64,000 nucleotides of DNA from Candidatus Poribacteria bacterium (GTDB lineage Bacteria > Poribacteria > WGA-4E > WGA-3G): NCBI GenBank assembly GCA_965242965.1, contig OZ251518.1, positions 371,680 through 435,679 on the forward strand. Direction: 5' to 3'. Shown piece after piece: positions 4,171 to 54,834 of the stretch. A program made the translations under genes and the position numbers. Under the pieces are notes generated by a model that saw nothing but the letters and a program-made list of their open reading frames with translations, was not told the DNA's origin and did no database searches. The first letter of the stretch is position 1. Every line of letters starts with the position of its first letter.

Positions 4171-6299
4171 TTATTTCAGGAGCTCTAATAGTGCATTTAT
4201 ACCTTTTACGCCGAGCACAGACAAAACTGTTGCAAAAGCGATGCTGACAATTCCGCCAAGGACGATCTTCCAGGGAGTCAGCGCGCCCTTCAATGCCTCA
4301 ACGGATTTTTCAGTGTTCACCAACTTTTCGTTCATATTGTCTAGTTGCACATCCCGTTTTGCGTCGCGTTCGGCACTAGCGGCGAGATGAGCTTCTGTCT
4401 TGGCTTGGAATTTCCCAATCTGCCGGAGGGACTCGTCAATGCTGCCTAAGCGTGCATCGCGTGCAGTGTCGCGTTCCGCACTGGCGGCGAGGAGTGCTTC
4501 TGTCTTGGCTTGGAATTCGCCAATCTGCCGGAGGGATTCGTCAATGCTGCCTAAGCGTGCATCGCGTGCAGTGTCGCGTTCCGCACCGGCGTTGAGGAGT
4601 GCTTCTGTCTTGGCTTGGAATTTCCCAATCTGCCGGAGGGATTCGTCAATGTTGCCTAAGCGTGCATCGCGTGCAGTGTCGCGTTCCGCACCGGCGTTGA
4701 GGAGTGCCTCTGTTTTCGCCTGGAATTTCGCGATGTCATCTAAGCGCGCGTCCCGTTCGGCATCGCGCGCTGCACTGGCATTGAGGAGTGCCTCTGTTTT
4801 CGCTTGGAATTCCCCAATCTGTTGGAATAACTCCCCGAGGTGTTCCAAGCGTGCATCGTGTGCAGCGTCGCGTTCCGCACCGGCGTTGAGGAGTGCCTCT
4901 GTTTTCGCTTGGAATTTCGCGATGTCGTCTAAGCGTGCATCCCATTCCGCGCCGCGTTCTGCACTAGCGGTGAGGAGTGCCTCTGTCTTCGTTTGGAATT
5001 CGCCAATCTGTTGGAACAACCCCTCAAGGTGTTTCAAACGTGCATCGCGCTCGGTATCGCGTTCGGCACTGGCGGTGAGGAGTGCTTCTGTCTTGGCTTG
5101 GAATTCGCCAATCTGCCGGAGGGACTCGTCAATGCGGACGAAGTGTGCATCGCGTTCGGCATCGCGTTCGGCACTGGCGGCGAGATGGGCCTCTGTCTTG
5201 GCTTGGAATTTCGCGATGTCCTCTAAGCGTGCATCCCATTCCGCGCCGCGTGCTGCACTAGCGTTGAGGAGTGCCTCGGTCTTGGTTTGGAATTCGCCAA
5301 TCTGTTGGAACAACCCCTCAAGGTGTTTCAAACGGGCATCGCGCTCGGTATCGCGTTCGGCACTGGCGTGAGGAGTGCTTCTGTCTTTGCTTGGAATTCC
5401 CCAATCTGCCGGAGGGACTCGTCAATGCGACCGAAGTGTGCATCGCGTGCAGCCTCGCGTTCTGCACTCGCGGCGAGATGGGCCTCTGTTTTCGCTTGGA
5501 ATTTCGCGATGTCATCTAAGCGTGCATCCCATTCCGCGCCGCGTGCTGCACTAGCGTTGAGGAGTGCCTCTGTCTTGGCTTGGAATTTCGCGATGTCATC
5601 TAAGCGTGCATCCCGTGCAGCGTCGCGTTCGGCACTGGCGTTGAGGAGTGCCTCGGTCCTGGTTTGGAATTCCCCAATCTGTTGGAACAACCCCTCAAGG
5701 TGTTCCACTCGGGCATCGCGTTCGGTGTCGCGCGCTGCACTGGCGGCGAGATGGGCCTCTGTCTTCACTTGGAATTCTCCGATTTGGCGGAGGGACTCGT
5801 CAATGCGACCGAAGTGTGCATCGCGTTCGGTGTCGCGCGCTGCACTGGCGTTGAGGAGTGCCTCAGTCTTGGTTTGAAATTCGCCAATCTGTTGGAACAA
5901 CCCCTCAAGGTGTTCCACTCGGGCATCGCGTTCGGTGTCGCGCGCTGCACTAGCGGTGAGATGAGCCTCTGTCTGCTCTTGAAACGCCGCTATCCGCTTG
6001 AACAATTCCTCAAGACTATCTAACCGCGTATCGCGTTTGGCATCTAATGCCTCAACTGCAGTCAATCGTGCATGCGTTTGGGTCTGGAGTTCTACAACGC
6101 GTTGGAGCAATTCCTCAGTGCCGTCCAGTCGTGCGTCGCGCGCTGCGTCGCGCTCAGCACTGGCAACGAGATACGCATCTCTTTTGACATCCAGTTCAGC
6201 ACTACGTTCTTGTATCTTCTCGATCCTCTCCAACCGAGGAATGCTTTCGTGACGTGCCGGCTCCGAAGCATTTTTAGGTTGATTATCGGTAGTTTTCAT
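4171..6299 (-). CDS. Tail-anchored coiled-coil protein made of about 17 tandem 35-aa (105-bp) repeats (unit ~RDARLGSIDESLRQIGEFQAKTEALLNASAERDTA). The frame is broken once near 5330-5375 (ORFs 5328..6299 and 4171..5331).
   Basis: 105-bp periodicity is visible in the DNA (e.g. 4441 vs 4546). C-terminal hydrophobic helix WKIVLGGIVSIAFATVLSVLGV. RBS AAGGAGAAACC before the ATG at 6299. One G is missing in the unit at about 5371-5376 relative to other units (cactggcgtgagg vs cactggcggtgagg). Confidence 0.6.
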
Positions 6300-7276: not shown

Positions 7277-7465
7277 TCAACTCCGCGCCTTCTTAAGCCT
7301 AGTTTCAACGAGATTGATAACCGCCTCGTAAACGCCATCACGCTCGCCTTGCGTCAATTCCAAGATGTCAAAGATGACGTTGTCAATCGCGATGCGCGCC
7401 GGTGAAGGCGATAAAACGTCCCATTCTTCGGATGCGAGGAGGGATGCATTTACCCCCCCCCTCAA
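7277..7465 (-). CDS. Probable displaced C-terminal segment of the adjacent methyltransferase (62-aa ORF in an alternate frame, beginning inside the G9 tract)
   Basis: Overlaps the MTase ORF by 83 nt in another frame. Its peptide (…DNVIFDILELTQGERDGVYEAVINLVETRLKKA) looks protein-like, whereas the MTase tail after the tract (KCIPPRIRRMGRFIAFTGAHRD) does not. Confidence 0.4.
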   Translation of the reverse strand: MRGGVNASLLASEEWDVLSPSPARIAIDNVIFDILELTQGERDGVYEAVINLVETRLKKARS

Positions 7466-10400
7466 AATTCATGTCTGTTAAGTTAGGGTTAACACATCGT
7501 AGCTCTCCCAAATCCGAGGTTTGGAGTTCTAACTCCCCATATCCTAGGTTTGAGCGACCGTTCACGTTCACCATCAACTGGAAGAAAGTAGAATTGAGGG
7601 AGAAACAGAGAGGTATCCTCAACTCAAGTGCGCATTGGAGTTCCATAAACTTGCCAGTCACATAACACCCCTCACTGGCATACAATGTTTTTGCCGTTGA
7701 ACGCATCCGGTGCGCAAAACTCATATACGGAGGCGGGCGTTTGCCCACATCATACCATCGCCGTCTAGATCGGATGCTCGGCCGCTGAGGCAGTTTCTGG
7801 CTTTCACCCGATTCAATGTATGCCAACGCAGCGGTGCCTCTTAAGGCTTCTCTCTCCTTTTGACACAGAAAGAGTTGATGTGGTGATTGTTCGGGGCGAA
7901 TCAACAGGCTCTCAGTGACTCTCCTGTCGTTGACAATCGGGTGTAAAAACTCTGGCTCAATATGCCACGCCGAAATCGTCTCCGCATCAAGGATGAAAAA
8001 CTGGTTTGCCCCGCTCATGATTCCTCGCCGAATCTGAGCGATGTCGCCGACACGGACGAGTTTATCCGAGCCTTTTTCTAGTAATGTCCAATAGATGTCG
8101 GGAGCGCGCAGATACTTCGCGCCCCATTTGTTTCCGGTATACTTCGTCTTTGCATCCATTCCGGCGGCTAAAAGTGCATCCTGCGAGAGAAGGTGAATTC
8201 GATATTCAGGCAGAGCATTCCGCTGGATTTCGGTTTCGATTTCGTAAAAGATGACAGGATCCAAAATAGCCTCAAACGGTTCGGTAAAGTTAACAAACCG
8301 CACAATGTCTTGCAAACCTGATGCGCTATCTCTAACCGGGGCGGAGATGAGACAAATAGCAGTGTTGATATTTACGGCTTTGAAGGAACGTCGTGCCGCG
8401 TTGTCCAAAACCAGTTTGAGATGACACCGCTTAAGGAGGAATTCCTGCAAATCTTTGCCGAAGTCCGCATCTAACCACGATCTGGATGTGATAGTGCAGA
8501 AGGTTCCTTTGGGATTTAGCAACGAGAGTCCGTGAAAGTAGAAGTAGACGTAGAGATCGCTGTTGCCATCTAGTTTATGCTTCACGGCAGACGCGGGGTT
8601 TTCCTTCGTATCCTTCTCCGGTTGATACCCGAAGAATGCAGGGAACGCCTGATAAACGGAACGCGCCAACTTGGCTTTATACGCCTTCGTGTTAGCGGGT
8701 GTAACCGCGTCTCGGGCTAGCGTCGGGTCTGTGAGTTTTTTCGTTGAAACGTAAGGCGGGTTTTCTATCACGATGTCAAAACCACCATACTGTTTGAAAA
8801 TCTCAACGAAGGCAATGTCCCACACGAAAGGTGGAACTGCATCTGACGTAAGGGCATGCTGGGCACGTTGGAGGTTGTTGAGATTCGCCTGTTGAAGTGC
8901 CAACTCCTGTTGCTTTTGCCGAGTTGCAAGATCTAATTGCGCTGCCTGGGGTTTCTCAATCCCGTCAAGCGTCAGTTGTTCAGCCGGATCTTCAAGCCAT
9001 TCCTGTAAACCTGCAATGCCTTCCAAAATTTGGCTTTCCTGCGACTGCAGTGTCTCCCGAAAGAGCAAGTTCTCGGCGCGTTGCACATCCGCTTTCTCAC
9101 GATATTTCCGCTCACGTTCGTTGTGATAAAACTTCAGTTTCTCTGTCTGGTGGAATACGATTTTGCGCGAGATGTCAGTCGGCACGCCGCTGCCCAACGC
9201 GCGCGTCTGCGCGAGGTTCATCCCACCGATGTCCTGCACCAGACTATCGCCGTGACGAATGTTAAACGAAAAATCAGGCAGCAAGGGCTCCTCGCGAATC
9301 TGCAGTTCCGCGGTGGAAATCTCTGCCTCAATGATGAGCGCGAGCCAGAGGCGTAACTCGGCAACTTTGCATGCCCACGGCATCACGTCTACGCCGTAGA
9401 GATTCTTGCCGATAATCGCCTTGCGGCGTTCAAACCTTGAGGTAACAGATGCACCGAGGTGCCGTGCGGCGCGTTCCCCCAGGTCATCGAGAATATGGAG
9501 CATGCCGACGAGAAACGAACCGCTGCCACACGCCGGATCCAACACCGTGAGACGGTTCAGATGCGTCGCGATATCACCCCACTGCGCGGCGAGGTGGGCA
9601 TCGGCATCTTCCTTCTCTGTTTCATCGAACGTAAAGAGTGCGGCGTAAAATTGATGCTTATGCGCCTCACCGATGTGATTTGCGAGGTTATCTACGAGCG
9701 CGAGACGGCACATCATATCTATCTCGATGCGCGGCGTGTAGAAGATGCCGGCATCGCCGCGTTCATCGGTTTCAGCGGAGACACTGACGAGACTCTCGTA
9801 GACTTTGCCGATCATCTCGGGGTCTACGGCGACTTCCTGTTCCAGCGGGGTATCCTCGGCGATGGTGAAGTTATATCCCTCGAAGAACTGGAAGATGTCG
9901 CGCCATAAATCATCGGGAATCGTGGTGGCATACTCGGTATCCCATTCGTTTTCTCGGAATAAGCCGCCGTTGAGATAGGGCGCGTGCTGAAGCGTTTCGC
10001 GGATGTTGTCAGGAAAGTAACGATATCCGCCGTGAAACTTCTGATTGAAAGCGGCGAAGAAGAGGACGTTGAGCCACTTTGCCACGAAGGTATCCGCTGG
10101 TTGCGTTGCGTTTTGATACGCCTGCCAAAACGTGTGCAGGAAATCGGTGTCGTTTCCGAGCCACCGTTTTCGCTGGATGAAATAGAGGAAGAGGCAGCGG
10201 CTGAGGAATTGTTGGGCTGCATCGTGCGCCCACTTTTTATCAGCGGTTTGCGTTTCCAACTCGGTTTGGAGGTTTCTGAAGACGCGCTGATAGTCGGCGA
10301 AAAACTGCGCTGTCACGGCATCGACATCGAAGGCGGCATCGTGCTGTTTGGTAATTTGCAGAGGTGTCAGCAGCTCTGGATTTGGGAAGAGGCTCTCCTG

Positions 10401-10886
10401 TTGGCCGTCAATGGCTATCGTCGCCAGATCGAGCATTGCGATACGTTCGGCGGCGGTGCGGAGTTTTTCATCGGGCGCGACAGTGATGCGCCGGAATCGG
10501 TGGCGTGCCTTGTGTTTCTTGCTTGCCTCGCGGACGAGTGTGACGTTGACGAAGTGCCAGTGGTCTTGCGCAATATTGCTAAAGATGTAGAGCGCGTGCG
10601 GGAAGCGCGTCTGCAAGTGCGCGATGACGCGGCGTTCGGCGGTCTTGCGGGGTGTTTCGGTATTGAGGCGCGCGTATATGATGTGAAAGTCGTTATCCCT
10701 ACCCCCGGCGGCAAAGCGTCGCGGTGCCTCGGCGAGGCAGTCGGCGATGGCTTCCGGGATGTTCTCAATCGGTTCATCGATGCGGTGATAATTGAGTTCT
10801 ACCCAAAAGAGTTCGCGCAGGGGTTCGATGCCGCGGAGGTTTTGTAGCAGAGTTAAGATGCGTTCGGTGTTTTCGGGTGTTGGCAT
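7383..10886 (-). CDS. Large gamma-class N6-adenine DNA methyltransferase, 1167 aa (Type IIG / BREX PglX / DISARM DrmMI-like). The true C-terminus is probably in the 7277..7465 frame.
   Basis: Motif X AGIFYTPR, motif I VLDPACGSGSFLV, motif IV IENPPY. A long N-terminal region precedes the MTase core. The C(9) run at 7453..7461 sits at the frame junction. Confidence 0.75.
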   Translation of the reverse strand: MPTPENTERILTLLQNLRGIEPLRELFWVELNYHRIDEPIENIPEAIADCLAEAPRRFAAGGRDNDFHIIYARLNTETPRKTAERRVIAHLQTRFPHALYIFSNIAQDHWHFVNVTLVREASKKHKARHRFRRITVAPDEKLRTAAERIAMLDLATIAIDGQQESLFPNPELLTPLQITKQHDAAFDVDAVTAQFFADYQRVFRNLQTELETQTADKKWAHDAAQQFLSRCLFLYFIQRKRWLGNDTDFLHTFWQAYQNATQPADTFVAKWLNVLFFAAFNQKFHGGYRYFPDNIRETLQHAPYLNGGLFRENEWDTEYATTIPDDLWRDIFQFFEGYNFTIAEDTPLEQEVAVDPEMIGKVYESLVSVSAETDERGDAGIFYTPRIEIDMMCRLALVDNLANHIGEAHKHQFYAALFTFDETEKEDADAHLAAQWGDIATHLNRLTVLDPACGSGSFLVGMLHILDDLGERAARHLGASVTSRFERRKAIIGKNLYGVDVMPWACKVAELRLWLALIIEAEISTAELQIREEPLLPDFSFNIRHGDSLVQDIGGMNLAQTRALGSGVPTDISRKIVFHQTEKLKFYHNERERKYREKADVQRAENLLFRETLQSQESQILEGIAGLQEWLEDPAEQLTLDGIEKPQAAQLDLATRQKQQELALQQANLNNLQRAQHALTSDAVPPFVWDIAFVEIFKQYGGFDIVIENPPYVSTKKLTDPTLARDAVTPANTKAYKAKLARSVYQAFPAFFGYQPEKDTKENPASAVKHKLDGNSDLYVYFYFHGLSLLNPKGTFCTITSRSWLDADFGKDLQEFLLKRCHLKLVLDNAARRSFKAVNINTAICLISAPVRDSASGLQDIVRFVNFTEPFEAILDPVIFYEIETEIQRNALPEYRIHLLSQDALLAAGMDAKTKYTGNKWGAKYLRAPDIYWTLLEKGSDKLVRVGDIAQIRRGIMSGANQFFILDAETISAWHIEPEFLHPIVNDRRVTESLLIRPEQSPHQLFLCQKEREALRGTAALAYIESGESQKLPQRPSIRSRRRWYDVGKRPPPYMSFAHRMRSTAKTLYASEGCYVTGKFMELQCALELRIPLCFSLNSTFFQLMVNVNGRSNLGYGELELQTSDLGELRCVNPNLTDMNFEGGGKCIPPRIRRMGRFIAFTGAHRD

Positions 10887-37657: not shown

Positions 37658-38485
37658 ATGAAGACGCAACTCATCTTTTCGATTCTGATTTTAGTGCTAT
37701 TTGTTTCTTTTCACGCCGGTGCCCAGGTCGCCTTCTATGCGGATTTTGAGCCCGGCTCAAACGAGGCGAAACCGAACGCCGCTGTGAACGACATCAAGCG
37801 GTATAAACCGGAGAACGCGGGAACCATCTGGGGCGAAGCAGATTTCAAAGGCGGTAAACTCGGCGGGAAAACTGCGATGGCGCAAACCGCCGAGGGCTGC
37901 GGTATCTCTGGCAATACGCCGCTTCCCGGCGTTACAGACTTCTCCGATGGCATCATCCAAGTGATTTTCTCCTTCGGCGATGACGATAGTTTCGGTGTGC
38001 AATTCCGCAGAAAGGGCGATGATAAAGGGTATCTCGTCGTTTTCGGCTATAACGAAACGTCGCAAGTCATTTTCGCCGACCTCGCCGATGGATGTTGTCC
38101 CTCCGGGCAATGTCTCGACCAGTGCGGCTGCGAGAACGGCGGCAAGGAATTGGAAGGTGTTCCCCACGGGTTAGGCGGTGGGTTGGACCAGACGAATGCC
38201 GTCCCCTACTTGGGCCGCGTGGAGGTAAAGGGCAACAACGTCAAAGTCTGGTATATGAAACTTGAGGAAGTCAAGGACCTCCATGCTTCTTCCGAAGACC
38301 TCGGGGCTCCTATCCTTGAGTCGGACAAGGCGACGAACAAGTCGGCTGGGAGTGTCGGTATCTGGCACGAAAGTTGGGGCATGGGACGCGTGGATAGCAT
38401 CCTCGTCACAACCGCCAGCGGCTTTGATGTTCATGTCAAAGACAAATTGACGACGACGTGGGGCGATGTGAAGAGCGGGTATTAG
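37658..38485 (+). CDS. Secreted Cys-rich protein, paralog 2. C-terminal tail DKLTTTWGDVKSGY.
   Basis: RBS AAGGAG. Signal peptide MKTQLIFSILILVLFVSFHAGAQ. Same cysteine motif. Confidence 0.65.
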   Translation: MKTQLIFSILILVLFVSFHAGAQVAFYADFEPGSNEAKPNAAVNDIKRYKPENAGTIWGEADFKGGKLGGKTAMAQTAEGCGISGNTPLPGVTDFSDGIIQVIFSFGDDDSFGVQFRRKGDDKGYLVVFGYNETSQVIFADLADGCCPSGQCLDQCGCENGGKELEGVPHGLGGGLDQTNAVPYLGRVEVKGNNVKVWYMKLEEVKDLHASSEDLGAPILESDKATNKSAGSVGIWHESWGMGRVDSILVTTASGFDVHVKDKLTTTWGDVKSGY

Positions 38486-38494
38486 GCCGTGCCT

Positions 38495-39005
38495 ATGCTC
38501 GGCGCGCGAGGGATAGGCCCTCGCGCGCGCCCCAGTTTGGCGAGGGAAACCCTCTCGGATGCGCGTATGGCATCCGAGGGCCCAAGCCCTACGAACCAGG
38601 AAACGGTTTTTGTCCCGTTCGTAGGTTGGCGAGGGGAACCCTCTCGCCTGCGCGTATGGCATGCGAGGGCCCTCGCCCTCCGGTGCGATGGAGCGTTTTT
38701 TTCACCGTAGCGCGGGGGCCTGTCCCCCGCGATCGCAGCATGGCAAGGGGAACCAGCTCGGATGCGCGTATGGCATCCGAGGGCCCCCGCCCTCCGGTGA
38801 GAAGGAGCATTTTTATCGTAGCGCGGGGGCCTGTCCCCCGCGATCGCAGCATGGCGAGGGACAGGCCCTCGCCCTACGGTGCAAGAGATGGTTATTTTGT
38901 TGCATTCGTAGGCTGGCGAGGGACAGGCCCTCGCCCTACGGTATATTGGCTTGGCGAGGGAAACCCGCTCGGATGCGCGTATGGCATGCGAGGGCCCTCG
39001 CCCTA
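38495..39005. repeat. REP cluster (family 1 variants, about 12 hairpins)
   Basis: Direct reading. The caller ORF 38458..40323 is wrongly extended across it. Confidence 0.85.
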
Positions 39006-39051
39006 CGATTCAGGAGACGGTTTTCAGAAGACGGTTTTTAGGAGGCCCACC

Positions 39052-40323
39052 ATGAAAGTTACAAACGTTGAACGTATTCTCGTAGATGTCCCCTTCACCC
39101 CGCGCCAACAGCAAATTACCACGCAAAGCGTTTCCACTGTCTACAACTGGTCCCTCCTTGAATTGTGCAAGGTGACGACAGATAGCGGGCATGTAGGTTG
39201 GGGTGAGACGGTTATCCACTATACTTATCGCCGTGTGAGCGATGAGAGCGTGGCGCGCGTGCTTGGAGAAAGTCCCGCCGCCCTCATGAACGATGATTCC
39301 CTCGGTGCCGGCTTGCAGATGGCACTTTTCGATGTGGTAGGTAAGATTTTAGAGGTGCCGGTGTATCAACTGCTCGGCATGCAGTGTCGCGAGGCTGTGC
39401 CTATTTCGTGGTGGAGCATTGATGCTTCGCCTGAGAGCTGGGCGGCGGAAGCGGCAGATGCCGTTGCGCACGGCTACACCAGCTTTAAGAATAAACCGCG
39501 CCCGTGGTGGGATATTATTGCGCAGGTGGAGGCAGTCGCGGCGGTTGTGCCGGACAATTTCAAGTTGGATCTGGATCCGAACGCTTCCTTGCGCGATGCC
39601 GATACAGCCATCCCGATTTTGCAGAAATTGGCGGCCTATCCAAACGTGGCGATGTTTGAGACACCGATTCCACAGAGTGATGTAGCGGGAAATAAGCAGA
39701 TTCGGCAGGCTGTTGACAGGCCGATTGCGATGCACTTTGGTTCGCCGCCCTATACCACTTGCGTTCGTGAGGATGTGTGCAGTGGTTTCGTCATCGGCGG
39801 TGGGAAATCGCAGGTAATGCGCGAGGGGCAACTCAGTGCAGCAGCGGACATGCCGTTCTGGCTCCAGATCGTCGGTAACGGCTTGACGACGACGTGGGCA
39901 GGGCATTTGGGGAGTGTGCTGACGCATGCCACCTGGCCGGCGATTACCTGCATCAATCTTTATAGTGAGCACCTCATTACGCAACCGGTTCAGGTTTCGG
40001 AAGGCGTTCACAAGATTCCCGATGCGCCGGGGTTAGGCGTTGAGGTGGACGAAGACGCTGTTGAACGCTTCCGCGTCCCCGCCGAAAAGTTGGATGCTGA
40101 GGGTTACACGATTCATCCCGTGCCGGAGATAATCAAAACCGCTGTTTATCCTGATGGCAGTTGTATCCATATGGCGGGTGATGGGTTGGGTTATTTCAAC
40201 GCTGGCAACGGCGAGGCGCAGGTAGAAGGCGCGCGTTTGGCGTTGACATTCAACGACGGTTCTGATGCGTGGGCAAAATTGTTTGCGCAGGCGGGCGAGG
40301 CACCGGTGCATGGGGAGTGGTAA
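39052..40323 (+). CDS. Enolase-superfamily enzyme (mandelate racemase / muconate lactonizing enzyme-like), 423 aa
   Basis: RBS AGGAGG plus ATG at 39052. KLDLDPN...D...MFETP...D metal-ligand pattern. Confidence 0.65.
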   Translation: MKVTNVERILVDVPFTPRQQQITTQSVSTVYNWSLLELCKVTTDSGHVGWGETVIHYTYRRVSDESVARVLGESPAALMNDDSLGAGLQMALFDVVGKILEVPVYQLLGMQCREAVPISWWSIDASPESWAAEAADAVAHGYTSFKNKPRPWWDIIAQVEAVAAVVPDNFKLDLDPNASLRDADTAIPILQKLAAYPNVAMFETPIPQSDVAGNKQIRQAVDRPIAMHFGSPPYTTCVREDVCSGFVIGGGKSQVMREGQLSAAADMPFWLQIVGNGLTTTWAGHLGSVLTHATWPAITCINLYSEHLITQPVQVSEGVHKIPDAPGLGVEVDEDAVERFRVPAEKLDAEGYTIHPVPEIIKTAVYPDGSCIHMAGDGLGYFNAGNGEAQVEGARLALTFNDGSDAWAKLFAQAGEAPVHGEW

Positions 40324-42884: not shown

Positions 42885-43300
42885 TAGGAGAGACCTCCCG
42901 GTCTCGATGCCGCCCAGTAGGAGAGCCCTCTGGTCTCGATGTTCCCGTAGCGCGGGAGCCCTCGGATGCCATCCGCGCATCCGAGCGGGTTTCCCCCGCG
43001 AGCACCATCGTCAAGATCTGGTCTCAATGTTCCCGTAGCGCGGGGGCCCTCGGATGCCATCCGCGCATCCGAGCGGGTTTCCCCCGCGAGCACCATCGTC
43101 AAGATGCTGTCTTAGGTCCTTTAGGTCCTACATGTCTATAGAAAAACGTGTCGGCCCTAGTCAAGGTCCTTTAGGTCCTTAATAACACACGCGCGGCCCT
43201 GGTAAAATCTATTAAGGACCTAAAGGACCTTAGCGTTCTTCGCGGGTGCGCGTGCTATAGACATTAAGGACCTAAAGGACCTAAAAGACGTTTTTTTCAT
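42885..43300. repeat. REP/MITE cluster including copy 3 of the ~190-bp composite MITE-like element (43105..43295)
   Basis: Direct reading. Confidence 0.85.
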
Positions 43301-45430: not shown

Positions 45431-46234
45431 ATGCAACTTATCAACAAAGAAAACATCCTCGCGATGACAGACAAGTGGGAAGGCGAGAGATTTCCCGATG
45501 GCCGCCCGCGGGTTTCAGATGATATTCTCCAACGGATGAAGGCGATTAGTATTGAACAGGCGTGGGGTGTCCTCCACGGCAGCGGTTATCGGTTTCAGTT
45601 TGCTGGCGATTGGTGGAATCTTCACCCGGAGCGCGTTCTCGTCGGGAGAGCGGTGACGTGCGCCTTCGTGCCTGTCCGTCCTGATTTCAACGATGCCGTT
45701 TCGGCGCAGGGAGAAAAAGAGGGACGCGTCGGTGGACAAAATTCGTGGGTAATCGATACGCTGGTTCAAGACGATGTCATCGTCGTAGATCTGTTCGGCA
45801 AAGTCAAAGATGGCACGTTTGCCGGTGATAACCTCGGCAACTCCATCTACGCCAAAACCGGCACCGGGATGGTAATTGATGGCGGCATCCGTGATTTAGA
45901 CGGCATCTATGAATTGCCGGACTTCGCAACCTTCGTTCGGGGTGTAGATCCGACTGGAATTGCGGATGTCACGTTGACAGGGATTAACACGCCGATTCGC
46001 ATTGGGGAAGCGACTGTTTTGCCGGGCGATGTGGTGCTAGGCAGGCGTGGTGGTGTCATCTTTATTCCGCCGCACTTCGCGCAGCAGGTAGTTGAACGCG
46101 GCGAGGAGGTGCATCTCCGCGACCGGTTTGGGCATCAACGTCTGCGGGAAGGCAAATATACGCCCGGCGAGATAGATAGGAAATGGACAGAAGAGATTGA
46201 GGCGGACTTCGCGCAGTGGCAGGAAAACCAATGA
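45431..46234 (+). CDS. RraA-family protein (RNase E regulator / 4-hydroxy-4-methyl-2-oxoglutarate aldolase-like)
   Basis: GD..V.D..G......G.......A...G..G.VIDGGIRD pattern. Confidence 0.6.
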   Translation: MQLINKENILAMTDKWEGERFPDGRPRVSDDILQRMKAISIEQAWGVLHGSGYRFQFAGDWWNLHPERVLVGRAVTCAFVPVRPDFNDAVSAQGEKEGRVGGQNSWVIDTLVQDDVIVVDLFGKVKDGTFAGDNLGNSIYAKTGTGMVIDGGIRDLDGIYELPDFATFVRGVDPTGIADVTLTGINTPIRIGEATVLPGDVVLGRRGGVIFIPPHFAQQVVERGEEVHLRDRFGHQRLREGKYTPGEIDRKWTEEIEADFAQWQENQ

Positions 46235-47946
46235 CAGACACACTCCAATCCGAAATTCACGCTATTTTACAGGGCGCGATACGAGATGCTATTGCGGCGG
46301 GAGAACTCTCTATCGCTGAGGTGCCAGAAATCCTGTTTTCGCCGACGAAAACGCCGGAACACGGCGATTTTGCTACGCCGGTTGCGTTGGGGTTGGCGAA
46401 ACAGGCAAAAATGCCGCCTCGCAAGATTGCCGAGACGATTGTCGCGCGCGTTAACGTGGCGGCGCATCCGCATATCCGCGAGATTGACATCGCCGGGCCG
46501 GGGTTTATTAACATCCATCTTTCGGATGCGTGGCTTTATGAGACGCTTCGCACGATTGTCGCCGAAGGAGATACTTACGGCACCTGCAGCGAAGGTGCCG
46601 GGCAGCGCGTCCAAGTTGAGTTTGTCAGCGCGAATCCAACGGGACCGCTGAATATTGTGAGCGGGCGCGCTGCCGCTGTAGGCGATACCCTCGTCAATCT
46701 GCTCAACGCTGTCGGCTACGATGCCATCCGTGAGTTCTACGTCAACGATGCAGGTGGACAAGTGGAACGGCTCGGTGAATCGATAGACATCCGCTACCGG
46801 CAGGCGTTGGGGGAAACAGGACTGGAAATTCCCGAAGGCGGTTACGAGGGCGAATACCTGCGGGATTTCGCGCAGGATGTCGTCAAGGCGGCGGGTGACA
46901 CGCACCTGCAGCTTGAGACAACCGAACGGGTATCCCTCTTCCGCGACAGGGGCATTGCGCACATCCGCGCGCAACAAGAGGCATCCTTGGAACGCTTCGG
47001 CGTTCAGTTTGATGTCTGGACAAGCGAGAAGGCAATCCGCGCAAGTGGAAAACCGGCGGAGATTCTCCAACTCTTTCGCGACAAGCAGTATCTCTATGAA
47101 GCGGAAGACGCAACGTGGTTTCGGATGTCTGACTTCGGGGACGATAAGGATTGCGTTGTCATCCGTCGCGATGGGGAATGCACCTATTTCGTGCCGGACG
47201 CGGCTTATCATCGCGATAAGTTTGACCGGGGATTCAATAAAGTCATCAACTTTTTTGGGCCGGACCATCAGGGGCACGTCAGTCGTCTCTACAACTTCGT
47301 GAAGGCACTCGGTTTGCCGGATGACTGGCTGGAGATTGCTATTATCCAACAGGTGAATCTCGTTGATGACGAGGGACAGCGGTTGGATATGTCAAAACGG
47401 CGCGGGAAGTTCTACACGCTAGATGTGCTACTTGACGAGCTCGCGGCGGCGATTGGGGAACGGTTCGCGGTGGATGTCGCGCGCTATTTCTACCTGATGC
47501 GCGCCAATAACACGCACCTTGATTTCAATCTGGAGTTGGCGGTTAGAGAGGCGAATGAAAATCCTGTCTTCTACATTCAGTATGCCTTTGCGCGGTGCTG
47601 GAGTATTTTCCAAAAGACTGCCGAGCATGGGATTACGCCGCTGCCTATTGACAAGGTTTCTTTGGAGTTGCTGACAGAACCGATGGCGCATGCGTTAATT
47701 CGGAAGTTGTCGGAATTTCCGGCATTGGTGCTTTTCAGTGCGGAGTCGCGCGAGGTGCATCGCATCGCGCACTATTTGCATGAGTTGGCGGGGTTATTCC
47801 ATCCCTACTATAATCAGCATCGGGTGCTGGATGCCGAGCATCAGGAACGGACGCAGGCGCGGCTTGTCTTGACGCAGGCGGTGCAGACGGTGTTGAAAAA
47901 CGGGCTGGCATTGTTGGGGATTTCCGCGCTGGAAAAACGGATGTAA
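46231..47946 (+). CDS. argS: Arginine--tRNA ligase
   Basis: SANPTGPL..., DALK-type anticodon-binding C-terminus (ENPVFYIQYAFAR), DMSKRRG. Note that the HIGH signature reads NIVS. Confidence 0.8.
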   Translation: MTDTLQSEIHAILQGAIRDAIAAGELSIAEVPEILFSPTKTPEHGDFATPVALGLAKQAKMPPRKIAETIVARVNVAAHPHIREIDIAGPGFINIHLSDAWLYETLRTIVAEGDTYGTCSEGAGQRVQVEFVSANPTGPLNIVSGRAAAVGDTLVNLLNAVGYDAIREFYVNDAGGQVERLGESIDIRYRQALGETGLEIPEGGYEGEYLRDFAQDVVKAAGDTHLQLETTERVSLFRDRGIAHIRAQQEASLERFGVQFDVWTSEKAIRASGKPAEILQLFRDKQYLYEAEDATWFRMSDFGDDKDCVVIRRDGECTYFVPDAAYHRDKFDRGFNKVINFFGPDHQGHVSRLYNFVKALGLPDDWLEIAIIQQVNLVDDEGQRLDMSKRRGKFYTLDVLLDELAAAIGERFAVDVARYFYLMRANNTHLDFNLELAVREANENPVFYIQYAFARCWSIFQKTAEHGITPLPIDKVSLELLTEPMAHALIRKLSEFPALVLFSAESREVHRIAHYLHELAGLFHPYYNQHRVLDAEHQERTQARLVLTQAVQTVLKNGLALLGISALEKRM

Positions 47947-47964
47947 GCTGTGGGGGGGCATAAA

Positions 47965-48600
47965 TGGTTCAACGTCGCGGGGGACAGGCCCCCGCGCTAC
48001 GGTTAAAAAAACGCCGCCCCATCCCGTAGGGCTTGGGCCCTCGCATGCCATACGCGCATGCGAGAGGGTTTCCCTCGCCATGCGTTTTGGTGTCAGAGCG
48101 CCTCACCCCTGTAGTTCAGGAGCGCCTGCTCCTGACCCGTTCGGGAGCGGGCGCTCCCGAACTACAGAGGGGGAAACCCTCATCGTAACGATGGAGATCG
48201 CGGGGGACAGGCCCCCGCGCTACGGTAGGTGGGGCGTGCGCTCATCACGTCTGTAGGTCAGGAGCGCCTGCTCCTGACCCGTTCGGGAGCGGGTGCTCCC
48301 GAACTACAGAGGGGGAAACCCTCATCGTAACGATGGAGATCGCGGGGGACAGGCCCCCGCGCTACGGTAGGTGGGGCGTGCGCTCATCACGTCTGTAGGC
48401 AGGAGCACCTGCTCCTGACCCGTTCGGGAGCGGGTGCTCCCGAACTACAGAAGGGGAAACCCTCATCGTGACGATGGCGATCGCGGGGGACAGGCCCCCG
48501 CGCTACGGTAGGTGGGGCGTGCGCTCATCACGTCTGTAGTTCAGGAGCGCCTGCTCCTGACCCGTTCGGGAGCAGGCGCTCCCGAACTACAGAAGGGGAA
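47965..48600. repeat. REP cluster. From 48107, a tandem array of 3.4 copies of a 143-bp composite unit (family 2 double hairpin + linker + family 1 hairpin).
   Basis: Units start at 48107, 48250, 48392 and 48535 with near-identical sequence. Confidence 0.85.
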
Positions 48601-48624
48601 ACACTCATCATCCTGATTTTAAAC

Positions 48625-48654
48625 TTGCAATGCATTGCGAATTTAAGGTATAAT
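48625..48654 (+). promoter_or_regulatory. Sigma70 promoter TTGCAA-N18-TATAAT. The ATG at 48661 lies 7 nt downstream, so the mRNA is leaderless or near-leaderless.
   Basis: Consensus -10. No RBS before the ATG. Confidence 0.5.
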
Positions 48655-48660
48655 CACATT

Positions 48661-51600
48661 ATGACAACACTTAACCTGAAACCAACTCACAAAGCGATAA
48701 CCGCCTATTATGCCGCACTCAACAGGTATCAACAGCACGGGGTAACCCACGAAACCGCCGTGCGCGCCGCCTTTCAAGCACTCCTCGAAGCCTGCACGCG
48801 ACAACTTGACTGGACGCTGATTTGTGAACAGACACTACGCCTCCCCGATAGAAATCCTATCCGCCTCGATGGCGCGCTGCTCGACGAACATAGTTTGCCC
48901 CGCGGCACCTGGGAGGCAAAAGGCGTTAAAGGAGCTCTCCGCGCCGAAATCAATAAGAAATTCGACGCAGGCTATCCCCAGGACAACATCCTCTTCCAAA
49001 CACCGGAACGCGCCATTCTCTATCAAAACGGACGCGAAGTGATGGACGCAGACATCACCGCACCGGAAACGCTTGTCACGGTGTTGCAGACGTTCTTTGC
49101 CTACGAGCGCGCGAACGCCGCCGAATGGCGCGCCGCCGTCGCACGCTTCAAAGAACTTGTCCCCGAACTCGGGGCGGAGGCGGCGAACCTTATCCAAACG
49201 CAGCACGAAACAAACGCGCAATTCCGCGCCGATTTCACCGCGTTTCACGAACTCTGCAAAACCGCCATCAACCCGAATCTCTCGGCGGCGGCTGTCCAAG
49301 AGATGCTCGTCCAACATCTTCTCACCGAACGGATGTTCCGCACTGTCTTCGAGGATCCGGATTTCGCCCACCGCAATATCATCGCCCGCGAAATTGAAAA
49401 AGTCCTCAAGGGAACACTGGCGAACTTCCTCAACCGCGGCCAACTGCTCCAAAAACTCACGCCGTTCTATCGCGAAATCGAACGCGAGGCAGCTACACTC
49501 GTCGATTTCTCGCAGAAACAGCACTTCCTCAACACCGTTTACGAGCAGTTCTTCCAAGGCTTCTCCGTGAAGCAGGCGGATACGCACGGCATCGTTTACA
49601 CCCCGCAGCCTATCGTCGATTTTATGGCGAACAGCGTCCAGCATATCCTCCAAACCGAATTCGACCACGCGCTGGCAGATGAAGGCGTTCACATCATCGA
49701 TGCGTTCGTCGGCACCGGCAACTTCATCGTCCGACTCATGCGCGACATCCCCAAGACGAAACTGGAGGCGAAATACCGAAACGAACTCTGGTGCAACGAA
49801 GTGCTGTTATTGCCTTATTACATCGCCACGCTCAACATCGAGCACGAATTCTACGCCGCCACCGGCACCTATCTGCCGTTTGAAGGCATCTCCCTCGTGG
49901 ATACGTTCGAGTTAGCGGAAGACCGGCAGTTGTCGCTCTTAACCGCTGAAAACACGGCGCGTGTGGCGAAGCAGCAAGCCTCGCCGATGTTCGTCGTCAT
50001 CGGAAATCCGCCCTATAACGCCGGGCAAATCAACGAAAACGATAACAACAAAAATCGGAATTATCCGACGCTGGAGGCGCGCGTGCGAGAAACCTATGCG
50101 AAAGACTCCACCGCAACGCTCAAAAATTCGCTCTATGACACTTACGTCAAGGCACTTCGTTGGGCTTCCGATAGGATTGGCAAACAGGGGATCGTCGCGC
50201 TCGTCACGAATAACAGTTTTCTTAGCGGCACCTCGTTTGATGGCATGCGGAAACACCTCGCTGAAGACTTTGATGCCATCTATGTCGTCGATTTGGGCGG
50301 CAATGCGCGGCGTGATAAACTTGTCGCTGATGCAAGCGTTTTTGGTATCCGCGTCGGGGTGAGTATTAATTTTTTCGTGAAAAACCCTTCCCGGCGATCG
50401 CGGGGGACAGGCCCCCGCGCTACGGTGCCTTCCGGTCTCGATGGGATCGCGGGGGACAGGCCCCCGCGCTACGGTAACGGGGAAAATTCCGCGCGCATCT
50501 TCTATTACCGCACCGATGACGCGTGGAACAAACACCAGAAATTCGATTTCTTGACGCAAACTGAACACGTTGGGAATGTGGACTGGCAAACGCTAGAACC
50601 CGATGCACGAAATACCTGGCTCACCGAAGGACTCAACCCTGAATTTTTGACGTTCATGCCGATAGGGAGCAAAACGGCAAAACGGGAAAAAAAGGAGCCC
50701 GCCGGGGTGATATTCCACCAGTTCAGCAACGGTTTGAAAACAAACCGGGATGCATGGGCTTACAACTTCAACCGCGATGCGCTCGCTGAAAACATGCAGC
50801 GCATGATAGGTGCCTATAACGCGCAGGTCTCCCAGTGGCGCGATAGGGACGACAACGCGGAGATAAGTGTTGACGATTTTGTCGATGCCGACTTGCGGAA
50901 AATCAAATGGAGTGGCGATTTGAAAACCGCTCTCAAAAAAGGGGTTTTCGCGGCGTTTTCCAATGAAAAATTGCGAACGTCTCTCTACCGTCCTTTCACC
51001 CGTTCTTTTCTGTTCTTCGACCGGCTCATGAATAACGGCACCTTTCTTCAGCCCTATATCTTCCCTACGCCGGAGACAGAAAAGGAAAATCTCGTTCTCT
51101 CTGCCGCGGGAACTGGGCATCGGACGGGATTTGGCTGTCTCGTCTCAAACGTCATTCCCAATGTAGATCTTGCCTATGAAAAAGGGCAGTGCTTCCCGTT
51201 CTACTTTTACGATGAAGATGGCACTAACCGCCGAGAAAACATCACCGATTGGGCATTGGAAAACTTCCGCAAGCACTATGGCGACGATACCATCACGAAA
51301 TGGAACATTTTCCACTACACCTACGGTATCTTGCATCATCCTGCGTATCGCGAACGTTACGCCGCTGATCTCAAGCGCGATTTACCGCATATCCCCTACG
51401 CCGACGATTTCTGGGCATTTGCAAACGCCGGCGCACGGTTAGCGGAACTTCATGTCAACTACGAGGCGCAGCCGGAGTATCCGCTCACGTTTGTCGAAGA
51501 TGCGACGCGGCAGTTGGATTTCCGCGTGGAAAAAATGAGGTTGTCCAAGGACAAGACCTCGCTTATCTATAACGAGTTTCTGACGTTGGAGGGGATTCCT

Positions 51601-51813
51601 GCGGCGGTGTTTTCGTATCGCTTGGGTCAGTATTCGGCGTTGGAGTGGGTGGTGAAGCAGTATCGTGTGAAGGCGGATGCGCGGAGTGGTATTGTGAACG
51701 ATCCGAACGATGCGTCGAATCCGCGTTATATCGTGGAGCTCATCGGTTCGGTGGTTACGGTGAGTTTGGAGACGTGTAAGATTGTTGGGGGTTTGCCATC
51801 GTTTCGTTCGTGA
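48661..51813 (+). CDS. Type IIG/IIL (MmeI-like) restriction-modification enzyme: N-terminal PD-ExK nuclease motif + gamma-class N6-adenine MTase + C-terminal TRD. Has an in-frame repeat insertion at 50395..50470.
   Basis: D76...E85-A-K87 (LLDEH...TWEAKG), comparable to MmeI D70/E80/K82. Motif X VYTPQ, motif I IIDAFVGTGNF, motif IV GNPPYNAGQ. Confidence 0.65.
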   Translation: MTTLNLKPTHKAITAYYAALNRYQQHGVTHETAVRAAFQALLEACTRQLDWTLICEQTLRLPDRNPIRLDGALLDEHSLPRGTWEAKGVKGALRAEINKKFDAGYPQDNILFQTPERAILYQNGREVMDADITAPETLVTVLQTFFAYERANAAEWRAAVARFKELVPELGAEAANLIQTQHETNAQFRADFTAFHELCKTAINPNLSAAAVQEMLVQHLLTERMFRTVFEDPDFAHRNIIAREIEKVLKGTLANFLNRGQLLQKLTPFYREIEREAATLVDFSQKQHFLNTVYEQFFQGFSVKQADTHGIVYTPQPIVDFMANSVQHILQTEFDHALADEGVHIIDAFVGTGNFIVRLMRDIPKTKLEAKYRNELWCNEVLLLPYYIATLNIEHEFYAATGTYLPFEGISLVDTFELAEDRQLSLLTAENTARVAKQQASPMFVVIGNPPYNAGQINENDNNKNRNYPTLEARVRETYAKDSTATLKNSLYDTYVKALRWASDRIGKQGIVALVTNNSFLSGTSFDGMRKHLAEDFDAIYVVDLGGNARRDKLVADASVFGIRVGVSINFFVKNPSRRSRGTGPRATVPSGLDGIAGDRPPRYGNGENSARIFYYRTDDAWNKHQKFDFLTQTEHVGNVDWQTLEPDARNTWLTEGLNPEFLTFMPIGSKTAKREKKEPAGVIFHQFSNGLKTNRDAWAYNFNRDALAENMQRMIGAYNAQVSQWRDRDDNAEISVDDFVDADLRKIKWSGDLKTALKKGVFAAFSNEKLRTSLYRPFTRSFLFFDRLMNNGTFLQPYIFPTPETEKENLVLSAAGTGHRTGFGCLVSNVIPNVDLAYEKGQCFPFYFYDEDGTNRRENITDWALENFRKHYGDDTITKWNIFHYTYGILHHPAYRERYAADLKRDLPHIPYADDFWAFANAGARLAELHVNYEAQPEYPLTFVEDATRQLDFRVEKMRLSKDKTSLIYNEFLTLEGIPAAVFSYRLGQYSALEWVVKQYRVKADARSGIVNDPNDASNPRYIVELIGSVVTVSLETCKIVGGLPSFRS
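50395..50470. repeat. Two family-1 hairpins (CGATCGCGGGGGACAGGCCCCCGCGCTACGG) inserted in-frame in the RM gene
   Basis: They encode ...RSRGTGPRATVPSGLDGIAGDRPPRYG... Confidence 0.8.
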
Positions 51814-51824
51814 AAAAAACGCCG

Positions 51825-52270
51825 TCATGTTACGTAGGGCGGGGGCCTGTCCCCCGCCATGCTGCGGTCTACCGGAAACTCGCGAGGGACAGGCCCTCGC
51901 GCTACGGAAAAAAACGCTGCTACGTTACGTAGGGCGGGGGCCTGTCCCCCGCCATGCTGCGATCTCTAGGCTCTGTAGTTCGGGAGCAGGCGCTCCCGAA
52001 CTACAGTGGGCCCGATGCGCGCCCCCCCAACGGGGATAAAGCATCCGAGCGGGTTTCCCTCGCCATGCAACGATCGCGAGGGACAGGCCCTCGCGCTACG
52101 GTGAAAAAACGCATCCCCGCCATCGCGCGCGCCAGTTTCTGTAGTTCAGGAGCGCCTGATCCTGACCCGTTTGTGATCAGGCGATCACAAACTACAGAGT
52201 GGGCCCGATGCGCGCCAGGTTCTGTAGGTCAGGATCGCCTGATCCTGACCTATTCGGGAGCAGGTGCTCC
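51825..52270. repeat. REP cluster (families 1, 2)
   Basis: Direct reading. Confidence 0.85.
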
Positions 52271-52308
52271 CGAACTACAAACCGAGGAATTGACAATAGG
52301 ACTACGTT

Positions 52309-53673
52309 ATGCAAGAAAACAGACACAATCAAACGCCACGCGAAATCCGAAAAATTGATAAGGCGCATGTGTGGCATCCGCTTTTTCAACATCAACGGCT
52401 TGAAGAGACAGACCTGCTCGTCATCAAGTCGGCGCACGGGACGACGCTTGTGGACGAAGAAGGCAGGGAATATTTAGACGCATACTCGGCACTGTGGAAC
52501 GTCAACGTCGGCTATGGCAGGCAGGAGATTGCGGATGCAGTCTACGCGCAGATTCAGCAGTTGCCGTATTATCCGCACTCGCAGATTAACGCGCCGGCGA
52601 CGATGCTGGCGGAGCAGTTATCGGCGTGCTTGCCGGGCGATCTGAACCACGTCTATTTCTGCAACAGCGGTTCTGAGGCGAATGAGACGGCTATCAAGAT
52701 TGCGCGCCAATACGGGAGGCAAACCTACCCGGGTGAGAATCGCTATAAAATCATCAGTCGGTATCGCGGGTATCATGGATTCACTTACGGCGCGTTGTCG
52801 GCGACGGGACAGGCGCGTCGGCGGAAGGCGTTTGAGCCGCTCGTCCCTGGTTTTTACCACGCGCAGCCGCCTTACTGTTATCGGTGTCCGTTAGGCTTAG
52901 CATCTTCTACTTGCAACGTCGGTTGCGCCGAGGACATCGCGCGGATTATTCAGTCTGAGGGCCCCGAGACGGTGATTGCCGTTATCGCGGAACCTATCAT
53001 CGGTGGGGGCGGCGTGATTGTGCCGCCGGCTGAATATTTGCCGAAACTCCGCGAAATCTGCGATGCTTATGGGCTGCTGCTTATCCTTGACGAAGTGATT
53101 ACAGGGTTTGGAAGGACCGGGAAGATGTTCGCATGTGAGCATTGGGGGGTCCAACCAGACCTGATTACGCTTGCCAAGGGGTTGACGAGCGGCTATGTCC
53201 CCCTCGGTGCGTGTGTTGCATCGACGAAGGTGTTTGAGGCGTTCCTCGGTGGGCCCGATGATAATAACGAGTTCGCGCAGGTTTGCACCTATGGTGGACA
53301 TCCTGTCGCTTGCGCCGCCGGTGTGGCGAATCTGAACATTTTGCAGGAAGAACGTCTCTGGGAAAACGCCGATAAGGTGGGGAGTTATCTCCTTGAAAAA
53401 CTGACGACGTTGAAAACTTTGCCTATCGTTGGTGATGTGCGCGGCAAAGGTTTGATGTTGGCGGTGGAGTTAGTTCAGGCTGATGGCGCGCATCTGGAAA
53501 CGGCGCACACGAACCGTATCGTCGGTGCATTGCGCGAGAAAGGCGTTATCGTCGGTAAGATTGGACACGCCGTGGACGAACCGGAGAACATCATTTTCAT
53601 CGCGCCACCGCTCATTCTCACTGAGGTTGAGGCGGATAGAATTTTTGAGACGCTCCGTGCTGTTCTCCGGTAG
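52309..53673 (+). CDS. Class III PLP aminotransferase (omega-transaminase/BioA-like)
   Basis: [33 protein letters not shown] motifs. Confidence 0.8.
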
Positions 53674-54639: not shown

Positions 54640-54805
54640 TCGAGACCAGGAGGTCTCTCCTACTGTCTTTCAAGACTCCGGAATCCGTAGGGCGAGGGCC
54701 TGTCCCTCGCCACCTTGCAAGCCCCCGGGATCCGTAGGGCGAGGGCCTGTCCCTCGCCACCTTGCAAGCCCCCGGGATCCGTAGGGCGAGGGCCTGTCCC
54801 TCGCC
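54640..54805. repeat. REP cluster (family 3, then 3 tandem copies of GGGATCCGTAGGGCGAGGGCCTGTCCCTCGCCACCTTGCAAGCCCCC)
   Basis: Direct reading. Confidence 0.85.
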
Positions 54806-54834
54806 ACCTTGCAAGACTAATTGAGAAACGAAAC

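Follow-up and report, generated by a model that had tools for sequence, protein, structure and literature searches.

What enzyme is encoded between argS and a class-III aminotransferase gene in a 64,000-nucleotide stretch of Candidatus Poribacteria contig OZ251518.1 (hereafter the window), how is it expressed, and what part do the palindromic repeats play that precede, follow and interrupt its gene? An initial annotation had described the product as an MmeI-like restriction-modification (RM) enzyme with a leaderless promoter, located next to an unusual tandem array of repeats. The analysis presented here predicts a real, intact and selected single-protein Type IIL RM enzyme that belongs to the DrdV family. 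We have good confidence in the explanation as a whole, which combines this enzyme with a probable leaderless promoter, an upstream array amplified from repetitive extragenic palindromic (REP) sequences, and in-frame REPs that the protein tolerates.

Identity of the encoded enzyme

The coding sequence extends from the ATG at 48661 to the TGA at 51813 on the + strand and is translated into a product of 1050 aa. The long open reading frame (ORF) of the initial annotation, given there as encoding 1051 aa, is real. The mechanical ORF call (48625..51813) begins at TTG 48625, which is the TTG of the -35 hexamer described below; an ATG or GTG is found at the position aligned with 48661 in 76 of 80 homologous loci, which supports 48661 as the start codon. 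The gene is flanked by argS (46216..47946) upstream and the class-III aminotransferase gene (52309..53673) downstream, both of which are housekeeping genes. No separate R, M or S partner gene was found, in agreement with the single chain proposed earlier.

Assignment of the coding sequence (48661..51813, +) to the DrdV family of Type IIL (IIG) enzymes draws on PDB and PADLOC searches and on substitution rates. A sequence search of the PDB returned DrdV from Deinococcus (PDB: 7lo5/7lvv, 1029 aa) as a full-length match (E 5.8e-192) that covers query residues 27-579 and 610-1047, and PADLOC matched the protein to REase_MTase_IIG (PDLC03621, E 7.5e-171), that is, to its Type IIG models. The N-terminal 175 aa alone retrieved only DrdV from the PDB (E 2.2e-23); the family that this stretch defines comprises ~1500 representative clusters, with full-length members of ~1010-1045 aa.

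Read from its N-terminus, the protein is arranged as a PD-ExK nuclease, a helical connector, a gamma-class methyltransferase (MTase) and a target recognition domain (TRD), all encoded on the + strand. The nuclease domain spans aa 1 to ~170 (48661..49170), as delimited by the DrdV match of this domain alone, and is followed by the connector, which matches Pfam ISP_coupler (PF22240) at aa 174-279 (49180..49497, E 8.3e-14). The N6-adenine MTase domain occupies aa 286-575 (49516..50385), with Pfam N6_Mtase/Eco57I matches over aa 286-547, and the TRD occupies aa 611-1050 (50491..51810), with a Pfam Type_ISP_C match (PF18135) over aa 684-1027 (50710-51741, E 8.9e-103). At E≤10, Pfam revealed no families in the protein beyond ISP_coupler, N6_Mtase/Eco57I and Type_ISP_C, and no helicase or ATPase family among them; NCBIfam gave sub-threshold matches only. 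The gamma-class motifs that had been reported were recovered by motif search as motif X, YTP (aa 313-315, 49597), motif I, DAFVGTGNF (aa 347-355, 49699-49725), and motif IV, NPPY (aa 449-452, 50005-50016), and the FxGxG and NPPY motifs are common to this protein and DrdV. Together, the Pfam matches and the full-length DrdV match bear out the earlier view of a single-chain bifunctional RM protein with nuclease, MTase and TRD.

Alignment with DrdV disclosed the nuclease active site; Glu-31 (48751), Asp-70 (48868), Glu-85 (48913), Lys-87 (48919) and Lys-100 (48958) correspond to Glu-25, Asp-64, Glu-79, Lys-81 and Lys-94 of DrdV, respectively, the residues that form its active site (bioRxiv 10.1101/2021.01.06.425610). 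All five are invariant in 49 homologues. The motif first proposed, D76...E85-A-K87, was correct in its E85-A-K87 part; residue 76 is a Glu, and the metal-binding Asp is Asp-70, close to which Asp-75 is also conserved. An AlphaFold2 model of the full protein was unusable (mean pLDDT 43, pTM 0.36) because the 49-sequence alignment was shallow, all homologues being at least 70% identical.

Pairwise comparisons with five related genes gave ratios of nonsynonymous to synonymous substitution rates (dN/dS) of 0.10-0.18 for the whole gene, 0.11-0.13 for the nuclease domain, and 0.03-0.22 across every domain. These low values indicate that both activities are under purifying selection. Species-representative genomes yielded more than 575 related stretches, a single genome carrying 3 to at least 5 paralogues. 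Among named genomes, the nearest are metagenome-assembled genomes (MAGs) of Candidatus Poribacteria from sponges, together with some Caldilineaceae and Latescibacteria MAGs; the host of the RM gene is probably a sponge symbiont, as Candidatus Poribacteria are. Paralogues are closely related, several in one genome being 65-95% identical.

Membership of the MmeI family, which the initial annotation implied, is very improbable. In profile searches, none of the Pfam models MmeI_N, MmeI_hel, MmeI_Mtase, MmeI_TRD and MmeI_C matched the RM protein, even at E≤10, and similarity to DrdV was found instead. As a positive control, ORF 7383..10886 of the window matched MmeI_Mtase (PF20473), so the MmeI models were present and working. 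Likewise, no MmeI chain occurred among the PDB matches, which returned DrdV, LlaGI and LlaBIII, and the TRD is of the Type_ISP_C kind. The catalytic residues are spaced as D70-X14-E85-X-K87, whereas the MmeI motif reads D-X9-E-X-K and lies near residues 70-82. These results stand against a resemblance comprising the same domain order and Type IIL logic, a PD-ExK motif near residue 80, gamma-class MTase motifs and a single chain without partner genes; in addition, the authors of the DrdV structure place DrdV, MmeI and BpuSI together as Type IIL (bioRxiv 10.1101/2021.01.06.425610). As judged from its sequence, the likeness of the RM enzyme to MmeI would be limited to architecture and mechanistic class (Type IIL). 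The mechanistic analogy was thus sound, and the sequence-family membership was not.

DrdV is itself described as a Type IIL enzyme composed of nuclease, helical connector, MTase and TRD; its recognition site is CATGNAC, of which it methylates one strand, and its cleavage, 10/8 bp downstream, requires multi-site assemblies (bioRxiv 10.1101/2021.01.06.425610). By analogy, the RM enzyme of the window would bind a short asymmetric site and methylate one adenine on one strand for self-protection. Cleavage, at a fixed short distance and on one side, would require that several molecules, each bound to a site, come together and exchange nuclease domains.

Promoter and start of translation

A sigma-70-like promoter composed of TTGCAA (48625-48630), an 18-nt spacer and TATAAT (48649-48654) was located at 48625..48654 on the + strand (10/12 matches), confirming the TTGCAA-N18-TATAAT element that had been annotated as abutting the ATG. 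Between its -10 box and the A of the start codon lie 6 nt, so that the last T is at -7, and no other + strand promoter-like site occurs in 47900-52400. The weight given to this promoter comes from its position and conservation and not from the match itself.

To place the arrangement in the family, a promoter pair was defined as TTGnnn-N16-19-TAnnnT with the -10 box ending 5-8 nt before the start codon. This geometry was present in 23 of 80 family loci, 15 of them at exactly 6 nt, which is the mode; at any other offset from 0 to 79, at most 2 of the 80 loci carried such a pair. Among 384 neighbouring ORFs with a minimum length of 200 aa, only 4 displayed this arrangement (Fisher p = 1.5e-15). 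Many of the 23 loci read TTGAC-N17-TGCTATCAT, with an extended -10 box, and are otherwise unrelated to the promoter of the window. Within the 64-kb window, only two candidate starts display the geometry, 48661 and 61375 (7 nt), and the modal 6 nt occurs only at 48661. The arrangement is kept in the five related loci L081-L085, at 6-8 nt from the ATG, including a paralogue that is only 75% identical. Shine-Dalgarno (SD) sequences of the GGAG type appear instead in ~21 of the 80 family loci; those with the promoter geometry are without SD motifs, and under a lenient pattern the two sets overlap in a single locus, the window itself.

These observations lead us to favour, by a modest degree, a leaderless or nearly leaderless mRNA for the RM gene. 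Transcription would probably proceed from TTGCAA-N18-TATAAT, with a transcription start site predicted at or close to the ATG. Three points weigh against this reading. The promoter match alone is at chance frequency, with 2 sites in 4.5 kb compared to a shuffle mean of 2.0. In L081-L084 the -10 box stands 8 nt from the ATG, a spacing at which a true zero-nt leader and one of 2-3 nt are equally likely. Finally, where the initial annotation reported no SD sequence, AAGG at 48645-48648, the sole SD-like string before the RM gene, is separated from the ATG by 12 nt (14 nt in L081-L084) and could serve as a weak SD if there is read-through from argS.

The corresponding alternative, which we regard as possible though not favoured, is that the gene is carried on a leadered mRNA, produced by read-through from argS or by a promoter located within or ahead of the array, AAGG being a weak SD and TATAAT incidental. 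Besides the chance frequency of the promoter match, it could draw on the conservation of AAGG/AGGG directly before the -10 box in L081-L085, on the + strand after argS, which contains no T-tract terminator, and on the ~21 family loci that clearly use a GGAG-type SD. Functional SD spacing is shorter than 12 nt, however, and both the 12 nt of the window and the 14 nt of L081-L084 exceed it. The -35/-10/ATG geometry recurs in the 23 family loci with unrelated sequences between the boxes, compared to 4 of 384 neighbouring ORFs, and the near-exclusion of SD motifs from these loci, with an overlap of one, is again at odds with a leader. A leaderless RM enzyme, if true, would have a built-in means of keeping a self-toxic protein at low levels.

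The upstream array and its cassette

The tandem array of composite hairpins upstream of the gene was confirmed with adjusted limits. Tandem Repeats Finder placed 3.5 copies of a 142-bp unit at 48109..48609 (+; 96% matches, score 918), compared to the 3.4 copies of 143 bp at 48107..48600 first reported. Each unit consists of a 59-bp REPIN-like element, a 31-nt linker, a REP designated REP-A, and a 24-nt junction. The 59-bp element is organised as CTGTAG-hairpin-hairpin-CTACAG, two GTAG-tagged REPs in inverted orientation (the REPIN layout); its minimum-free-energy fold pairs both halves, making one long hairpin possible. An element search located these inverted dimers (CTGTAG...CTACAG) at 48109, 48251, 48392 and 48534 and the REP-A copies of the array at 48200, 48342 and 48483. 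REP-A reads GCGGGGGACAGGCCCCCGCGCTACGG, or CCGTAG-CGCGGGGGCCTGTCCCCCGC on the other strand, that is, GTAG followed by a GC-rich palindrome. A solitary REP-A (GCGGGGGACAGGCCCCCGCGCTACGG, 0 mismatches to the consensus) is located at 47977..48002 (+), 31 nt after the argS stop codon.

Elements of this kind saturate the window, at a density of ~60 REPs per 64 kb. REP-A and a close variant occur in 55 copies at ≤3 mismatches, compared to 0 in shuffled sequences, and the REPIN-like element is dispersed in ~20 copies. The composite of REPIN, linker and REP is also found alone, at 20281-20397 (-), while the 24-nt junction is present only inside the array. The array is therefore a dispersed GTAG-type composite of REPIN and REP that has been amplified locally in tandem. 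Further REP arrays at 271-459, 29424-29551, 42929-43105, 52127-52279 and 54667-54815 adjoin unrelated genes, and the array is in this sense not the unusual structure that it was first taken for. A CRISPR-like array was considered and rejected, since the units are near-identical throughout and contain no unique spacers. At gathering thresholds, Rfam returned no match in the whole window, and the array is not a known RNA family. No match to Y1_Tnp, the domain of REP-associated tyrosine transposases (RAYTs), was obtained among 30 window ORFs scanned.

Related loci were used to trace the history of the array and its gene. The syntenic orthologue (P0002/L083) lies on a 5.74-Mb ENA contig in the order RraA, argS, RM, aminotransferase and PNP, with flanking genes ~93% identical to those of the window. 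A second copy in the same genome (P0001/L081), located between adh_short and DUF6785 genes, is 94% identical in nucleotides and 95% in protein; it was rejected as the orthologue despite the latter value, its neighbours being different, and represents a paralogue. L081 has the array end, the promoter and the entire 3' cluster of REP and REPIN-like elements in common with the window, where this cluster fills the spacer to the aminotransferase gene (51832..52280, element search). Here, window positions 51880-52279 are 97.8% identical to L081 positions 7249-7649, beside different genes. The shared array end, promoter and 3' cluster therefore define a duplicated or exchanged unit, a cassette of ~4.2 kb (~48100-52280), in which the array would travel with the promoter, the gene and the 3' REP cluster. 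The REP-rich flanks are more conserved than synonymous sites in the RM gene.

The copy in the window is also a mosaic. Its last 864 nt are 95.5% identical to L081 and 92.0% to L083, and its 3' flank is 97.8-99% identical to L081 as opposed to ~73% to L083, while the rest of the copy is equally close, or slightly closer, to the syntenic locus. The best breakpoint is at ~50949 (Fisher p = 5e-6 before correction for scanning). This mosaicism suggests exchange between paralogous cassettes.

In L081, an extra hairpin of ~70 bp (…GGAAAAATCGAGACCAGGAGGTCTTTCCTAC…, 3863-3945) is positioned between the array and the promoter and constitutes a third REP type. The same type was seen in the coding hot spot of L083, described below, and at 6734-6839 of the window.

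We consider it most likely that the array is without a dedicated function beyond generic REP effects. The alternative is that the array is a dedicated cis-regulatory or structural element, serving as an insulator or terminator that counters argS read-through, as a structure in mRNA or DNA by which expression is tuned, or as a recombination handle that moves the cassette from one locus to another. A cis-regulatory role is made conceivable by the joint conservation of array and promoter in two paralogous loci, a point that counts against our preference. In the same direction, array, promoter, gene and 3' cluster are common to two genomic contexts, the flanks are 97-99% identical compared to a gene dS of 0.24 and so exceed synonymous-site similarity, a single unit folds very stably (-81 kcal/mol, z = -5.1), and the window copy combines syntenic and paralogous lineages. 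Still, the copy number varies freely, from 3.5 in the window to 2.8 in the syntenic L083, ~1.8 in L081 and 1 in L082 and L084, so that the variation which the initial annotation proposed to look for is present, and the 75%-identical paralogue carries the same promoter without any array. Similar REP arrays next to unrelated genes in the window, the lack of any T-tract or U-tract terminator after the array hairpins, and a mosaic breakpoint near 50949 that does not fall at a REP likewise make a dedicated role doubtful.

REPs within the coding sequence

Two exact copies of REP-A interrupt the gene in frame at 50400-50425 and 50449-50474 (+; element search, 0 mismatches). At ≤4 mismatches, the window contains 63 REP-A copies, and those in the RM gene are the only ones inside a supported coding region. 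The two copies are read in different frames, as RGTGPRATV and AGDRPPRYG, and lengthen by ~28 aa the hairpin that links VSINFFVK, the final MTase strand, to ARIFYYRT, the initial TRD strand. Of 81 16-mers taken from the insert, 36 are found again in the flanks. This insert explains the gap in the DrdV alignment, where query residues 579-610 face DrdV residues 582-587; LlaGI has 2-3 residues there.

ORF 38428..40320 is open through four REPs (38705-38941) and shows that the REPs of the window are stop-free in several frames. Its enolase-superfamily Pfam domains begin at aa 224, and the REPs, which probably lie upstream of the true start of a mis-extended ORF, were not counted as intragenic.

We compared the same loop in the RM protein and its 120 closest homologues (n = 121). 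Its length ranges from 8 aa in the insert-free form (RGEGQREP) to 132 aa, and it measures at least 14 aa in 90 of the 121 proteins. At least three REP types contributed inserts, which occur in all four of the frames and orientations that are free of stops. A second hot spot follows aa 66, four residues before the catalytic Asp-70, at the position equivalent to ~48858. It is empty in the window and holds 8-54 extra aa in 28 of the 121 proteins, in homologues P0053-P0120. In distant GTDB loci, few 16-mer matches were found between the inserts and their own 4-kb flanks, so a REP origin of the inserts is firmly established only within the close clade, which comprises the window and L081-L085 as well as, through their peptide motifs, the 120 homologues.

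Near-identical genes carry different elements at the first site. In the window these are two forward copies of REP-A, in L081, L082 and L084 a decayed REP together with a reverse REP-A, and in L083 five elements of three types. Conversely, the 81-nt insert of L085, a gene 75% identical to that of the window, is nearly the same as the window insert, with 2 differences, though dS between the genes is ~1.0. Both findings indicate that inserts turn over or are homogenised independently of the gene; recent insertion, homogenisation, or a constraint at the DNA or RNA level are possible causes of the near-identity despite saturated synonymous sites. A role of the intragenic REPs as breakpoints for TRD shuffling was not supported, the best breakpoint (~50949) being inside the TRD and not at 50400-50474.

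The insert also raises the question of whether the enzyme is still active. A segment of 28 aa at the MTase-TRD junction could impair it, and premature stops are present in 4 of 83 related loci (L007, L052, L055 and L064, with products of 371-801 aa); both facts weigh against our reading of an intact enzyme. Some paralogues of the family thus appear, by sequence, to be pseudogenes, and the several paralogues per genome provide redundancy. On these grounds, the RM gene could be regarded as a decaying or restriction-dead copy, either an orphan methyltransferase or a future pseudogene. We judge this to be unlikely, as the ORF is intact and conserves both the MTase motifs and all five active-site residues of the nuclease, and dN/dS is as low in the nuclease domain (0.11-0.13) as in the whole gene (0.10-0.18). 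Moreover, full-length ORFs are kept by the 90 of 121 close homologues with REP inserts in the same loop, which fits a permissive site. The MTase-TRD hairpin seems to tolerate the extra REP residues, presumably neutrally.

A more far-reaching idea is that in-frame REPs and RAYT activity may repeatedly remodel two fixed loops of DrdV-like enzymes and, combined with the REP-rich flanks, act as a diversity-generating or regulatory device. The loops in question may be the MTase-TRD hinge and, in other paralogues, the loop four residues before the catalytic Asp. Possible effects include changes in hinge length that alter cleavage geometry or oligomerisation, tuning of the nuclease, mRNA hairpins that throttle translation, and patches of homology for exchange between paralogues. 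The 2-difference insert at a dS of ~1.0, the conserved flanks and the mosaic gene fit this idea and do not prove it, and we think it improbable. Tolerated insertion at a permissive loop remains our preferred account, and it supplies a clear natural case of a defence enzyme whose permissive loops, at fixed positions, have gathered REPs in frame.

Other features of the window

A second defence-like cluster occupies 849-10886 on the minus strand. It contains a 1102-aa PLD(HKD)+SNF2 helicase (849..4160, -), which matches PADLOC 'HKD+Snf2' (E 1.9e-83) and has DrmD-like matches, and a 1166-aa Type IIG-like methyltransferase of the Eco57I/MmeI_Mtase type (7383..10886, -), the protein used above as a control. 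Two ORFs between these genes, 4171..5331 and 5328..6299 (-), had no Pfam or PADLOC match. Tandem repeats on their coding strand (4363-6037), with periods of 105, 210 and 294 bp, all multiples of 3, may encode a repetitive, possibly coiled-coil protein of that defence cluster.

Two adjacent paralogous ORFs at 14876-15589 and 15870-16568 (-) each contain two HicB-like antitoxin stretches, with no obvious HicA partner among the ORFs scanned. At 31899-34814, a 971-aa ORF joins an N-terminal extracytoplasmic function (ECF) sigma factor (regions 2 and 4) to C-terminal BNR/Sortilin-type repeats; this is an unusual fusion unless the mechanical ORF call has merged two genes.

Comparison with known systems

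The RM gene itself adds one more, routine member to an enzyme family that has been characterised structurally. It resembles DrdV in domain order, in size (1050 aa compared to 1029 aa), and in having neither an ATPase domain nor partner genes. It differs in the ~28 aa encoded by REPs, where DrdV has a turn of ~5 residues, in the promoter that abuts its start codon, and in belonging to a multi-paralogue family whose copies number 3 to at least 5 in each genome among sponge-symbiont MAGs.

With MmeI the enzyme shares an N-terminal PD-ExK nuclease, a gamma-class MTase and a C-terminal TRD and, by analogy, would share the enzymatic logic of single-strand methylation and a need for multiple sites. 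In contrast, sequence-family membership is not detectable, the catalytic spacing is another one, and the TRD comes from a different family. Re-targeting by TRD changes has reportedly been mapped in studies of MmeI. The main practical value of the present family could lie in the same direction; its many close paralogues, combined with methylomes, could map TRD re-targeting of DrdV-type enzymes.

LlaGI and LlaBIII, which are enzymes of Type ISP, are homologous to the RM protein in coupler, MTase and TRD (E 1.9e-144 and 1.7e-126, respectively), the homology beginning at query aa 189, which corresponds to residues 582 and 746 in these enzymes. Pfam likewise matched the RM protein to ISP_coupler and Type_ISP_C. 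The MTase and TRD of DrdV have themselves been called "highly similar" to their Type ISP counterparts (bioRxiv 10.1101/2021.01.06.425610). Unlike the Type ISP enzymes, the RM protein is without the Mrr-like nuclease and the RecA-like ATPase/translocase and is ~500 aa shorter. By analogy with DrdV, it should cut at a fixed distance by oligomerising, and not by translocation and collision, because it lacks these two modules; the same contrast between DrdV and Type ISP enzymes has been drawn previously (bioRxiv 10.1101/2021.01.06.425610).

Leaderless mRNAs are known for the C genes of the AhdI and PvuII RM systems (PMC2275141). As in ahdIC and pvuIIC, the -10 box of the RM gene precedes the start codon, counted from its first base, by ~7 nt, in a gene of an RM system. 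The leaderless product there is a small C regulator with a mapped transcription start site, whereas here it would be the bifunctional enzyme itself, with a start site predicted from the promoter. For ahdIC and pvuIIC, a low translation rate was proposed to aid safe establishment (PMC2275141). The present data add family-specific comparative evidence that a bifunctional RM enzyme, too, may use a leaderless mRNA.

The repeats themselves resemble GTAG REPs, REPINs and clusters similar to bacterial interspersed mosaic elements (PMC3733652), as well as the Rickettsia palindromic elements (RPEs), being GC-rich, GTAG-tagged palindromes of 26-30 bp that occur in high copy number, mostly between genes, as inverted dimers and tandem clusters. 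Occasional in-frame copies that contribute 20-30 aa or more to otherwise normal genes are a further likeness, and intragenic GTAG REPs encoding 20-80 aa have been described in other bacteria (Di Nocera et al. 2013, PMC3733652). The REPs of the RM gene are thus a new case of a known phenomenon, one that bears on the coexistence of selfish palindromes and host proteins in the repeat-rich and defence-rich genomes of sponge symbionts. What sets it apart is the kind of gene, a defence family as opposed to the replication and repair genes stressed in the earlier work (PMC3733652), and the recurrence of the insertions, which pile up at two fixed loops over many paralogues and reach up to 132 aa.

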